From a virus: 42,305 bases of DNA. The notes beneath the pieces are model-generated. The model saw nothing but the letters and a program-made list of their open reading frames with translations. It did not search any database and was not told the origin of the DNA. The stretch lies in the UHGV virus genome UHGV-0118819; one strand, written 5' to 3'. The position numbers were made by a program, and so were the translations under genes. Shown here in pieces: positions 32,764-37,012 of this stretch; the stretch's first letter is position 1; every line of letters begins with the position of its first letter.

Positions 32764-33652
32764 CCTCCAGTTTCGCTTTGCATTCTATGTAAATGGCTTG
32801 TATGTTCTGCTGCAATTTCATTCCAGATGTCAGGCGATATGCTTCTGCAAAATATCTCTTCAAATCATCCATGTTTTCAGCCTGAGCCATTTCATCACAA
32901 AGAAGTTGTGCTTTATCCGTTATTCCCTGCTGGCGTTTCCGTTCATCTTCGCGGATATCTTCCTCTGATTTGTGCGGCATAACTGGTTCAGTCCATACAC
33001 CTTCTTCTTCGTTTAGTACGTGAATAGCACTATCAAGACGTGATGCCTTAGGCCAATACTTGCTTGCACGCTTTACGACCGTCTTTCGCGCCATCTCATT
33101 CCAGTGATTTACCCATGGTCCTTTATCGCTGAATGCCGCCTTGCTTGTTTTCCTTACAGCCTCAATTTCAGCCAGACTCATCTCTTCCGTTAGATAATCA
33201 CCTGCTGGCGTCTTAACTGTGCAGTAAACACCAACGATATCGCCACGATCACCGAAGGCGTTGTATTTATGGGTTGGTGCTTTATCAAGTCCGTTTGACT
33301 CATAAGTATCGTTAGCATGAACAAGCTTTGCCTGACCCCATGAGATAACACCAGACTCCATTGCAATATGTAGCAATCCCATATAGCTGATATCAAGGCA
33401 CACCATGCCGTCGCGCGGAACCAGATAAGCCAGTTTGCTAGCCGGGTTTAAGGTGATGCCGATCGCCGCAACATTGATGATGGCGTTCTGTGCGCTGGTT
33501 GGATTTGCCAGTGCCGTTTTAGCCAGGTAATCATTTTTCTGGAAATACTGAATTGCAAACTGGCTTTCCTTAGCCCATGTCACCGTCTGTTCAGTCAATG
33601 CTCCGCAGAATAACTGCTCTTGCTGTTTAACGAATTCAACGATATTGCTCAT
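32741..33652 (-). CDS. recT: RecT-family single-strand annealing recombinase
   Basis: 303 aa with LAYLVPRDG and typical RecT core. Confidence 0.85.
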   Translation of the reverse strand: MSNIVEFVKQQEQLFCGALTEQTVTWAKESQFAIQYFQKNDYLAKTALANPTSAQNAIINVAAIGITLNPASKLAYLVPRDGMVCLDISYMGLLHIAMESGVISWGQAKLVHANDTYESNGLDKAPTHKYNAFGDRGDIVGVYCTVKTPAGDYLTEEMSLAEIEAVRKTSKAAFSDKGPWVNHWNEMARKTVVKRASKYWPKASRLDSAIHVLNEEEGVWTEPVMPHKSEEDIREDERKRQQGITDKAQLLCDEMAQAENMDDLKRYFAEAYRLTSGMKLQQNIQAIYIECKAKLEVASEQTI

Positions 33653-33960
33653 GCTGCTTCTCCAAAAATGTGTCTGCGTTTGAATATTGCGAAGGCATAT
33701 TCAGCCTTAACTCTTTCGGTTATTGCATCCCAGAACCATTCAGCGGCTTTTTCCTGATAGTTACAGTCATCATCTTCCAGCCAGTCGATAGCGTCCTTAG
33801 TGTGTTCATCTGGTTTATATGAGCGAAGCATTTCGCTTATTGGGTCGCAACGTTTGCAGAGGCGATCAACTTCACTGTTGATTCGTTCGTAATCTTCATC
33901 AGTAAAACTTGCGATTATTTGCGATATTTCACGCTTATCATTCAGAGTCAGAATCATCAT
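33649..33960 (-). CDS. hypothetical early protein (103 aa)
   Basis: ORF coupled to RecT start. Confidence 0.55.
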   Translation of the reverse strand: MMILTLNDKREISQIIASFTDEDYERINSEVDRLCKRCDPISEMLRSYKPDEHTKDAIDWLEDDDCNYQEKAAEWFWDAITERVKAEYAFAIFKRRHIFGEAA

Positions 33961-34041
33961 CTTTCTCCTGTTCTTTGTGCTGATTGAGCATTTTGTTCAT
34001 CTGACGAATGAACTCTTCGTCTGACCAGTTATCTGTAAAAC

Positions 34042-34194
34042 TCATTTCCTGCGATACCACGGAAGATTGATAGCTGATTTCATCGCTTTATTTGCTTCAA
34101 GCCACATTTTTGAATCACCAATAAATCTGGCTATTACTGCTTTGTTCTGTGCAGCACGAAGCATCTGGTGATTGATGGCTATTTCATTGCGCAT
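34042..34194 (-). CDS. Kil-like small protein (50 aa), tentative
   Basis: Own translation MRNEIAINHQMLRAAQNKAVIARFIGDSKMWLEANKAMKSAINLPWYRRK with GGAGG RBS; position after cIII and FIGD..KM motif recall lambda Kil. Confidence 0.4.
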   Translation of the reverse strand: MRNEIAINHQMLRAAQNKAVIARFIGDSKMWLEANKAMKSAINLPWYRRK

Positions 34195-34313
34195 AACGCC
34201 TCCAGTTGTTTCTTTGCTGCTCTGATTAATTGTTTAACTCGGCGTGATAATTCAGATTCGTGCGGGTAGAAAGCGGACATGACGCCGCTACCCGCGAGCT
34301 GAAAGTGCATCAT
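34179..34313 (-). CDS. cIII: CIII-like protein (protease inhibitor protecting CII)
   Basis: 44 aa from MMHFQLAGSGVMSAFYPHESELSRRVKQLIRAAKKQLEAL; resembles lambda CIII amphipathic helix; AAGGAG RBS. Confidence 0.7.
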   Translation of the reverse strand: MMHFQLAGSGVMSAFYPHESELSRRVKQLIRAAKKQLEALCAMK

Positions 34314-34377
34314 GGGTAACTCCTTATATTTGATTGCATAACGAAAACGCCTCTCGTGAAGCGTTATTGGTATGCAT

Positions 34378-34403
34378 ATAAAAAAGCCCTCACACTGGAG
34401 GGC
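34378..34403 (-). terminator. intrinsic terminator (tL1-like) upstream of cIII
   Basis: Minus strand GCCCTC-CAGTGT-GAGGGC followed by TTTTTTAT. Confidence 0.6.
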
Positions 34404-34465
34404 AAAGAAGATTTCCAATAATCAGAACAAGTCGACTCCTGTTTAGTTACGAGCGACATTGCTCC

Positions 34466-34493
34466 GTGTATTCACTCGTTGGAATGAATACAC
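34466..34493 (-). promoter_or_regulatory. perfect 9-bp stem hairpin just after the 156-aa gene
   Basis: GTGTATTCA-(10 nt loop)-TGAATACAC. Confidence 0.45.
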
Positions 34494-34507
34494 AGTGCTT
34501 ACTCGTA

Positions 34508-34978
34508 CTAATAAAATACCCAATTTTCTGTTTCTTGGTTGTGCCCAAAGTTATATTCAATATCTGGTGTTGATGTATCAATATTCTTCATCCCATCAAC
34601 AAGAGTTGATACAACAGCCAAATCTTGTTTGATTCTCATTAAATGGTATTTCTTCCGGCGCAATAAACTTTCAATGGCAAGTTTCTTCGTTGGGAATGCA
34701 AAAGATCTTTCTGCATTTTTTGCTACTTTCTTAATTGCATATCTATTTCTCCTTTGTTTCCATTCCTGTAACCACTGATTTGGTGCTGGTTTAAAATTAA
34801 CAATCCAATGCGCAGGAACCAACCATGCATAATGCTCTGTCTGATGAAAAGCTATATATTGAAGTGCGAATATTTTGATCCCATCTTCTTCAACTGTCGC
34901 CTGGAATCTCCAGAAAACAGGCATTCCATCATGTTCAGTTTCTGATTCAGGAAAAGGTACGCTCCATGATTTTGTCAT
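34508..34978 (-). CDS. hypothetical AT-rich protein (156 aa) in N-cIII interval (moron candidate)
   Basis: ORF between N-proximal gene and terminator; composition visibly more AT-rich than neighbours. Confidence 0.6.
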   Translation of the reverse strand: MTKSWSVPFPESETEHDGMPVFWRFQATVEEDGIKIFALQYIAFHQTEHYAWLVPAHWIVNFKPAPNQWLQEWKQRRNRYAIKKVAKNAERSFAFPTKKLAIESLLRRKKYHLMRIKQDLAVVSTLVDGMKNIDTSTPDIEYNFGHNQETENWVFY

Positions 34979-35040
34979 ATCTCACCTCAAATAAGTGGCT
35001 TGCTGCCAAAACAATGAACCATCCGGAAATTCCAGATAGT

Positions 35041-35268
35041 TCATAATTCACTCTTCAATACTTCCAACTTACTAATCGCCGATAGATATCCGCGCTGATA
35101 GGGCATCATCATTCCTTCGAGCTTGCCACTTCTTAACTCCTCCCTGAGCAATTGTATTGCTTGATCAATAACCTCTGCCTTAGCGTCCTTTATGGATTGC
35201 TTTCGGGGCTTTGCTTTCTGCTTTGGCAGATTTCTCAAGCATGATGGAATGTATGTCTGATTCATCAC
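35041..35268 (-). CDS. hypothetical small basic protein (75 aa)
   Basis: ORF directly downstream of N. Confidence 0.5.
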   Translation of the reverse strand: MMNQTYIPSCLRNLPKQKAKPRKQSIKDAKAEVIDQAIQLLREELRSGKLEGMMMPYQRGYLSAISKLEVLKSEL

Positions 35269-35541
35269 TTACCTCGCTGTCAGTTGTTTTGATTTCCGGT
35301 AGCCTGCCGCGTAAATGGCTACGTTTGGCAGGCAAATACTTCCACTGCATTCATCTGCCTTCTTGCAGCGAAGGCTTCCGAGTGATGCTGCTTTGTCTGC
35401 TCTGACGCAACCAGAGAGCTTTAGCGCAATTTTTCGTGCCAGTCGCTGCTCTTGCATTGCCTGTTCACGTTGAGCCTGTCTGCGTGCTCTGCGGCGATTT
35501 CTGGCGTTATCGTCAGCCAGATATGTAATGACTACTGTCAT
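35269..35541 (-). CDS. N: N-like antitermination protein
   Basis: 90 aa; arginine-rich motif DNARNRRRARRQAQREQ near N-terminus; first gene after nutL. Confidence 0.75.
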   Translation of the reverse strand: MTVVITYLADDNARNRRRARRQAQREQAMQEQRLARKIALKLSGCVRADKAASLGSLRCKKADECSGSICLPNVAIYAAGYRKSKQLTAR

Positions 35542-35735: not shown

Positions 35736-35764
35736 AGAATACTGTAGGTATTTTATTGTGTAAA
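35736..35764 (-). promoter_or_regulatory. candidate pL promoter
   Basis: Minus strand TTTACA - 17 bp - TATTCT overlapping OL operators; -10 context shared with pR. Confidence 0.4.
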
Positions 35765-35909: not shown

Positions 35910-36299
35910 TTAGTCAGCGAAGGTTAAGACGAGAATTACCTTAATGATGTCTGCTACAACAGACACGGCCATAGATAAACCAAAGACAATCCAAGCCATA
36001 GAGATGTCTTCACTACCATCGTATAGAGTTCCGTAATCACTGGTGTAAGGCGTAAATGTCGCGCCTTGATACAATAGGTATAAGCTTGATCCATAGAGGA
36101 TAAATGCAGATATCCCTTGTATTGCCATGATCACCAGAATCATGAAACGAGCTGATCTATGCGCCCAAGCCTGGCTTATTTTTTCTGATAGAGATTTCGC
36201 AATAAAAGCATGCGCTAAGCCGTAAATTGTCGAGATTGCCAACATCCCAAAAAAGCTTGCTATAGCGGTTCCAACCATAAGCGCCCCTTGCGTGATCAA
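35910..36299 (-). CDS. small multi-pass membrane protein co-transcribed with cI (rex-slot moron candidate)
   Basis: 129 aa with about 4 hydrophobic segments; TTG start overlapping cI stop (alternative ATG 21 nt downstream); ends just before OL. Confidence 0.65.
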   Translation of the reverse strand: MITQGALMVGTAIASFFGMLAISTIYGLAHAFIAKSLSEKISQAWAHRSARFMILVIMAIQGISAFILYGSSLYLLYQGATFTPYTSDYGTLYDGSEDISMAWIVFGLSMAVSVVADIIKVILVLTFAD

Positions 36300-37012
36300 A
36301 CCAGCCTTAGTTTTGTCTCAATTGCAACGCCTATAATCTTGCAGTTTCCATTGATTGGCACGAGAGGCCATGCAGGGTTAAGTCCCTTGAGGTATTTATT
36401 TCCGCCGTCGATTATCAGCTTCTTGAATGTTGCTTCGTTAGAGTCAGAAAGTTTTGCTATGACCAAGCTGCCGTTGATCGCCTCCCTTCCGGTATCGAAA
36501 AGAACGAATGTTCCCTCTGGAATGCTTAACCCAACCGGTGCCGTCATTGAATCACCTTCCACTTTAAGCCAAAACGCATTACCTTGAATATGCGCGTCAG
36601 ACTCAAGCCAAACATCTATGTCTTTAATGGTGTATGGTTCGCATGCTTCACACCACGAGCCAGCCTGGATACTGCTTAACACCGGATACCTCTTTCCTGC
36701 TCTGTATTCCCCTGCATACCTTACGTTGGCATCGCTCTTAAGGCTTTCTGCCTGTTCTGCAACCTTGGCAGCAATTGACTGGCTAAAATCAGCAATTGAG
36801 ACTTGCAACAATCGTGCAAAACCAGATGCAACCTCAACGTTTAGCGCATTTCTGCCATTAAGATAATGCCCTACCGCTCCTTGGGTGATACCCAGTTCAT
36901 CAGCGATTGAGTATTGGGTTATTCCCAATTCTTTCTTTTTTGACTCATACAAAGCCTTAAGCCGCTTAGCGTCTTCCAGCTGTTCTGTCGTCAGTGATTT
37001 TTTATTTTCCAT
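36296..37012 (-). CDS. cI: CI repressor (HTH + S24 autoprotease domain)
   Basis: 238 aa; N-terminal HTH LGITQYSIADELGITQGAVGHYLNG; C-terminal GDSM...K LexA-like motif. Confidence 0.9.
   Translation of the reverse strand: MENKKSLTTEQLEDAKRLKALYESKKKELGITQYSIADELGITQGAVGHYLNGRNALNVEVASGFARLLQVSIADFSQSIAAKVAEQAESLKSDANVRYAGEYRAGKRYPVLSSIQAGSWCEACEPYTIKDIDVWLESDAHIQGNAFWLKVEGDSMTAPVGLSIPEGTFVLFDTGREAINGSLVIAKLSDSNEATFKKLIIDGGNKYLKGLNPAWPLVPINGNCKIIGVAIETKLRLV

Follow-up and report, generated by a model that had tools for sequence, protein, structure and literature searches.

The window analysed here is the whole 42,305-nt virus genome UHGV-0118819, which belongs to a mosaic lambdoid phage; its closest record, mEpX2, covers 53% of the early region. 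All genes near the locus lie on the minus strand, in the order N, a 75-aa ORF, a 156-aa ORF (gp45), a block homologous to the small RNA PreS, cIII and kil. The features from cI to kil, several of which are predicted, are as follows.

36296-37012, minus strand: cI
35910-36299, minus strand: 129-aa ORF for a probable membrane protein (PHROG 6534)
35269-35541, minus strand: N (PF25694)
35041-35268, minus strand: 75-aa ORF (PHROG 5305)
35014-35044, minus strand: 14-bp terminator-like hairpin followed by UGUUUUGG, overlapping the stop codon of the 75-aa ORF
34982-34988, minus strand: Shine-Dalgarno sequence GAGGTGA, read directly from the sequence, 6 nt upstream of the ATG of the 156-aa ORF
34508-34978, minus strand: 156-aa ORF with an ATG start, gp45 (PHROG 1636)
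34466-34493, minus strand: RNA hairpin GUGUAUUCAUUC-CAAC-GAGUGAAUACAC with 9 perfect pairs, then U.G, U-A and C-G
34380-34467, minus strand: PreS/LPR1 homologue, its 88-nt extent counted back from the U-tract
34424-34465, minus strand: PreS stem-loop 1, from fold prediction
34403-34430, minus strand: largely unpaired, U-rich seed UUGUUCUGAUUAUUGGAAAUCUUCUUUG, identical to that of lambda
34403-34380, minus strand: intrinsic terminator GCCCUC-CAGUGU-GAGGGC-U6 from a terminator scan, with a 6-bp GC stem and a 6-nt loop
34346-34365, minus strand: second terminator-like hairpin, AACGCUUCACGAGAGGCGUU then UUCGUU, about 30 nt upstream of cIII
34179-34316, minus strand: cIII (PF08134)
34042-34194, minus strand: kil (PF06301)

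With N and cIII identified by their Pfam families on either side, the 156-aa ORF indeed occupies the N-cIII interval, where a first-pass annotation of this DNA had placed it. That annotation had also described the ORF as markedly AT-rich, and sliding-window analysis of G+C content agreed: at 36.3% G+C (GC3 28.7%) the ORF is the lowest 471-nt stretch of the window, compared to 49.0% on average (sd 4.8) for windows of this size and to 45.9% in the flanking early region. Only 0.1% of equal-sized intervals across the 42 kb are as low in G+C, and every one of them overlaps the ORF. Among seven homologous loci, the gp45-family gene was found to lie 3-10 G+C points below the flanks of its own phage in every lineage checked; because the homologues share this deviation, the AT bias is partly a family trait and does not prove recent transfer.

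Judged by its sequence, the ORF is a long-known orphan gene, gp45 of HK97 or L0079 of 933W. The protein matches PHROG 1636 over its full length (E = 2.7e-112, residues 1-156 of 156), is 99.4% identical to HK97 gp45 (AAF31125) and is 100% identical not only to 933W L0079 but also to the proteins of BP-4795, Min27, Stx2-86 and many Stx1a phages. A megablast search found the region in 327 phage records, with 98.9% identity to HK97, whose GenBank record names the gene Gp45 and marks the tL2a-homologous terminator as "putative". By comparison, the ORF is absent from the Sakai prophage Sp5. The earlier statement that the ORF has no recognisable family therefore holds for Pfam, NCBIfam, PADLOC and PDB sequences, where searches found no relative, but not once the matches to PHROG 1636 and HK97 gp45 are considered. 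The PADLOC defence-system models gave only a chance-level match (Cas1_II, E = 0.018), no similarity to Ral or SieB was seen in Pfam, NCBIfam or PHROG, and a search of the literature for HK97 gp45, L0079 and phrog_1636 returned nothing relevant. Overall, the results neither back nor contradict the role in exclusion, anti-restriction or anti-defence that the first-pass annotation had suggested. A 79-aa antisense ORF inside the gene was dismissed, as it shows no conservation in the homologues.

Full-length homologues of gp45, with 55-85% identity, are encoded by prophages of several hosts, among them Cronobacter, Pectobacterium, Brenneria and Rosenbergiella. An alignment of homologues of 55-99% identity has 40 invariant columns, which indicates that the ORF encodes a genuine protein maintained by selection. 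When 1.8 billion representatives were searched with the family profile, 87 distant relatives were found and about 70 of 130-155 aa were added, all annotated as hypothetical, and a Pfam scan of 75 family members found no domain. Longer homologues, considered as possible clues from domain fusions, proved to be uninformative or low-complexity artefacts. In those contexts that could be read, the gene is located in early-left accessory regions near recombination genes and DNA methyltransferases, sometimes as the last gene before xis-int; the one exception is a metagenomic contig in which a gp45-family gene lies among structural genes. The divergent homologues, too, are found in early-left accessory regions directly behind intrinsic terminators, with a clear one in Cronobacter and Pectobacterium and a weaker terminator-like site in Brenneria. 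Relatives are also encoded by the virulent phages Pantoea LIET2 and Erwinia phiEa2809.

An AlphaFold2 model built on the 75-sequence alignment reached a pLDDT of 95.5 and a pTM of 0.82; it replaced a model from a shallow 22-sequence alignment, which had a pLDDT of 59 and was discarded. The model shows an alpha/beta protein in which residues 19-55 form a long antiparallel sheet of three strands and residues 98-130 a helix of 33 residues, together with short helices and a fourth strand. Neither a profile search of the PDB with the gp45 family nor a comparison of the predicted fold with solved PDB structures yielded a match, and no membrane segments were predicted in the ORF. Family members are basic (median pI 8.9), and their conserved Lys and Arg residues are concentrated at residues 75-117, a charge pattern that suggests binding to nucleic acid or to an acidic partner. 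Thus, gp45 represents an orphan amenable to testing, with a confident predicted structure and no solved structural relative, encoded in a slot used for anti-restriction and exclusion genes.

With regard to expression, no sigma-70-like promoter was found on the minus strand between 34978 and 35268 in a crude consensus scan, which a weak or activator-dependent promoter could escape. The single plausible promoter in the region, at 35736-35764, is located where pL is expected. In HK97, which has the same hairpin and terminator downstream of gp45 as the window, the gene follows N directly and starts 58 nt after it, whereas in the window the 75-aa ORF and the terminator-like hairpin at 35014-35044 lie in between. 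This hairpin is part of a module of N and the 75-aa ORF common to mEp213, mEpX2, ECP1 and phi367, rather than of the gp45 block, and may be a tL1-type site, the tL1 equivalent of this phage. The 75-aa ORF, directly after N, encodes a basic protein, for which no Pfam family was found.

Since no promoter of its own was found and a terminator-like hairpin lies upstream, gp45 would depend on pL and on read-through. It is most likely a delayed-early gene, read only when RNA polymerase modified by N passes through from pL. Ral of lambda and gp17 of P22 are comparable in that they occupy the same slot in the same orientation and are dispensable accessory genes dependent on pL and N, but neither shows sequence or family similarity to gp45. 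Moreover, phi367 carries ral and a gp45 homologue side by side, and the two are hence not alternatives to each other. Delayed-early expression would fit a role in the lytic cycle, such as counter-defence, host takeover or DNA transactions, and would fit exclusion by a prophage less well; the relatives in virulent phages point the same way. From position and charge, it is possible, though less likely than not, that gp45 binds nucleic acid or a host factor in counter-defence or host takeover, in the manner of Ral and gp17 from the same slot.

A different role, that of a superinfection-exclusion or abortive-infection gene expressed from the prophage like SieB or Nun, appears improbable for gp45. 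The slot does include exclusion genes in other phages, low G+C content is typical of prophage cargo, and the ORF is common in Stx prophages and among complete E. coli genomes. However, the ORF has no promoter-like site upstream and is co-oriented with pL behind N and a terminator-like hairpin, the protein has neither membrane segments nor a match to PADLOC models, and prophage exclusion would be meaningless in virulent phages such as LIET2 and phiEa2809. A lytic-cycle function of a delayed-early gp45 is the reading favoured by these observations.

The sequence downstream of gp45 has a separate identity. The block at 34378-34498 is identical at 120 of 123 positions to the ea10-ral intergenic region of lambda (NC_001416, ~33923-34045), and it differs by only 1 nt from the copies in the DE3 and CV601 lambda prophages; in lambda-type prophages it lies between ral and ea10. 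This region of lambda encodes the Hfq-dependent small RNA LPR1, renamed PreS (Silverman, Nashef, Bruner, Noy and Melamed, bioRxiv 10.1101/2024.10.31.621285), and is also covered in a 2025 review. In lambda, PreS is found only in the lytic cycle, as species of ~88 and ~68 nt, with the early-left terminator tL2a as its 3' end. By pairing upstream of the dnaN start codon, PreS exposes the ribosome-binding site and raises DnaN, and it represses alaS; loss of PreS leads to less lambda DNA replication and less spontaneous phage release (bioRxiv 10.1101/2024.10.31.621285).

On the strength of this near-identity, the block at 34378-34498 is a homologue of the lambda PreS (LPR1) locus. It combines homology to lambda, a tL2a-type 3' end, a seed matching dnaN and a position on the pL strand downstream of N. 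The 5' end in the window was estimated only from the published band sizes, which, with the RNA ending at ~34380, would place the start of the ~88-nt form at ~34467 and that of the ~68-nt form at ~34447. The sole substitution relative to lambda within the RNA body, at 34435, is located in a predicted bulge. Folding of the 121-nt block is much better than that of shuffled sequences (z = -4.55, with 0 of 200 shuffles as good), and its seed complements positions -48 to -16 of the E. coli K-12 dnaN leader, with a predicted duplex energy of -28.3 kcal/mol that was equalled by 1 of 1000 shuffled seeds. Strand, place in the pL operon downstream of N, seed, predicted fold and dnaN complementarity are thus all the same as for lambda PreS. 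The differences are that the upstream gene in the window is gp45 and not ral, that the downstream gene is cIII and not ea10, and that the terminator stem has 6 bp instead of 8 bp, with the U-tract directly after it. A scan against Rfam 15 found no matching model for the RNA block; a weak RyhB match (E = 3.2) reflects the terminator only. The EHEC prophage small RNAs AgvB, AsxR and HnrS were considered as the identity of the block and rejected, given their location in the late region.

The function of PreS in this phage can be proposed from its near-identity to lambda. During lytic growth, an RNA of ~88 nt would arise from the pL transcript and would bind Hfq through its terminator and U-tail. 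It would pair with the dnaA-dnaN mRNA immediately 5' of the dnaN AUG, opening the ribosome-binding site and raising the level of DnaN, the sliding clamp, which would aid phage DNA replication; it would presumably also repress alaS. For the annotation of this locus, the consequence is that structures previously read as bracketing the ORF correspond to a small RNA gene with a function, known from lambda, in reprogramming host DNA replication.

The first-pass annotation had called the terminator at 34378-34403 tL1-like. A canonical intrinsic terminator is indeed present there, but the tL1 label does not apply: two ORFs lie between N and this terminator, whose homologue in lambda is the one located between ral and ea10. 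By this homology, the terminator at 34380-34403 is the tL2a homologue and the putative Hfq-type 3' end of PreS. In HK97, H-19B, Cronobacter and SEN22, the second terminator-like hairpin, at 34346-34365, is conserved along with the cIII module; it may belong to the region that controls cIII translation. In H-19B, a gene similar to P22 gp17 lies between tL2a and the cIII leader hairpin (1257-1568 of the compared H-19B segment), and the hairpin stays beside cIII despite this insertion. The gp45 homologue of H-19B (~1600-2211 of the compared segment) is unannotated in the GenBank record.

Comparison with related phages showed where the gp45 and PreS sequences begin and end. The stretch conserved at 98-99% identity with HK97, H-19B and phi367 extends from the terminator to ~25 nt upstream of the ATG (~35007), a short leader that travels with the gene, and beyond ~35007 the alignment with these phages runs into unrelated sequence. 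The expectation of a variable accessory slot holding a discrete mosaic block was thus borne out, since this identity is maintained among phages with different flanks. Comparison with lambda splits the stretch again, ~10 nt 3' of the ORF stop codon (~34500), with lambda homology starting 5 nt before the hairpin at 34466-34493. The gene upstream of the block formed by this hairpin and PreS varies: it is ral in lambda and phage 21, where ral lies directly upstream, a Nun-like gene in 434, gp45 in HK97, 933W and the window, and an orf78-like gene in the P22-like phage ST104.

The prevalence of these sequences was surveyed by searching 5426 complete E. coli genomes with the ORF and the downstream block as query. 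The ~125-nt block from terminator to hairpin was present in 2238 genomes (~40%), mostly without an annotated feature, and the ORF and the block occurred together in 563 (~10%), so that about three quarters of the genomes with the block carry it without the ORF. The PreS block is present both in Stx-converting phages and in a large share of complete E. coli genomes, and in the records examined it is either unannotated or marked only as a terminator. Conversely, the gp45 homologues of Cronobacter, Pectobacterium and Brenneria come without the hairpin or PreS and have unrelated terminators instead. As each is widely found without the other, gp45 and PreS are independent modules, and a coupling between them, such as binding of gp45 to the hairpin, is unlikely. 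Accordingly, the locus very probably comprises two independent, adjoining modules of the pL operon, namely the PreS/LPR1 homologue (34378-34498) and the mosaic block of gp45 (34508-35007).

This distribution bears directly on the original proposal that the ORF, the hairpin and the terminator form a single acquired moron, in which the structures regulate or insulate an ORF with an exclusion or anti-restriction role. No stretch of the window is more AT-rich than the ORF, the three elements are contiguous and jointly conserved at 98-99% in HK97, 933W and this phage, and other phages carry ral, sieB, nun and gp17 in the slot, all of which would suit such a unit. But the supposed regulators belong to a PreS/tL2a module that is a small RNA gene in lambda and that usually occurs without the ORF, the distant gp45 homologues are associated with other terminators, and the ORF has neither a promoter of its own that could be found nor any resemblance to Ral or SieB. 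As a single unit, the moron is thus very improbable and largely refuted by the distribution data, and the role of the hairpin and terminator as bracketing regulators of the ORF fails with it. Morons are said to have been defined for HK97 and HK022 by Juhala et al. in 2000 (J Mol Biol 299:27). Like these morons, gp45 is an extra block between otherwise adjacent genes, with deviant composition and a terminator downstream. It differs in that no own promoter was detected, that the terminator is that of a separate small RNA module, and that expression probably occurs by read-through from pL. What stands of the moron claim is a discrete insertion, with block boundaries common to HK97, H-19B and phi367, and deviant composition; an own promoter and an own terminator do not, as the terminator is mostly present without the gene.

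Under the preferred reading of two adjoining modules, the 9-bp perfect inverted repeat at 34466-34493, which was confirmed, belongs to the PreS side. As minus-strand RNA it forms 12 bp, of which pairs 10-12 need a U.G that the plus strand does not allow. The hairpin is located immediately 5' of the inferred start of PreS, and it is PreS rather than the ORF that it accompanies. ST104 and SEN22, two Salmonella phages, keep the PreS body while the arms of the hairpin are quite different yet complementary, again with a strand-specific U.G. In a seven-sequence alignment, representing about three independent lineages, both partners have changed in 7 of the 12 pairs, and pairing is seen in 97.6% of cells; over the whole structure the proportion is 93%, compared to 37-48% once the partners are shifted by 1-3 columns. 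Arms that differ but remain complementary indicate selection on structure and not on a recognition sequence, and this covariation is good evidence that the hairpin is under selection as RNA.

The PreS preprint (bioRxiv 10.1101/2024.10.31.621285) makes no mention of the hairpin or of how the 5' end is formed. From its position, the hairpin putatively defines or protects the RNA ends where the upstream mRNA meets PreS, and could be either a processing signal or a 3' stabiliser of the upstream mRNA. A role of the repeat in DNA, as the binding site of a dimeric protein or as a recombination or mosaic-junction sequence, is very unlikely, for although no more than 5 nt separate the repeat from the left edge of the lambda-shared block, where mosaic joints fall, and its nine bp are perfectly palindromic on both strands, the U.G needed by pairs 10-12 is present only in the minus-strand transcript and the P22-like arms differ in sequence while staying complementary.

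The reported conservation of PreS is restricted to sequences of at least 92% identity (bioRxiv 10.1101/2024.10.31.621285). A diverged PreS-like block was found in ST104 and SEN22 between orf78, or a lectin-like gene, and gp17/c3, at the following positions.

568-706 of the compared ST104 segment: PreS-like block
560-700 of the compared SEN22 segment: PreS-like block

In these two phages, the hairpin and the terminator differ in sequence from those of the window but their structures are kept, and the seed region of the Salmonella versions is interrupted by an insertion of 14 nt. Their seeds are nevertheless predicted to pair with the dnaN leader from -53 to -17, when the E. coli target sequence, not that of Salmonella, is used; with this E. 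coli target, the pairing was equalled by 19 and 26 of 500 shuffles.

With respect to what was already available, the hairpin and terminator as structures are explained by the published work on PreS, and the gp45 gene has long been known. The structural selection on the 5' hairpin and the diverged PreS of P22-like phages, with its seed matching dnaN, seem to go beyond the PreS preprint. A combined picture, in which gp45 is an early effector with a new fold that binds nucleic acid or a host factor, for example in counter-defence, and has distant relatives in virulent phages of many Proteobacteria, the hairpin determines the processing or stability of PreS and frees it from the 3' end of any accessory mRNA located upstream, and P22-like phages possess a diverged PreS that targets dnaN, is put forward as tentative only and is rather unlikely to hold in all its parts.

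Several other ORFs and genes in the window were also observed. The 129-aa ORF at 35910-36299 (minus strand) overlaps the cI stop codon by 4 nt, in the position of rexA/rexB of lambda, and its product looks like a multi-pass membrane protein; with its PHROG 6534 assignment, it is a candidate exclusion gene expressed from the prophage. Downstream of kil, a further early-left ORF at 33649-33960 (minus strand) encodes an acidic protein of 103 aa that matches PHROG 3486 and no Pfam family. Two adjacent tRNA genes were identified on the plus strand, at 2366-2437 and 2446-2518 (Rfam, 55 and 61 bits), and this pair resembles the tRNA clusters located downstream of Q in Stx-type lambdoid phages.
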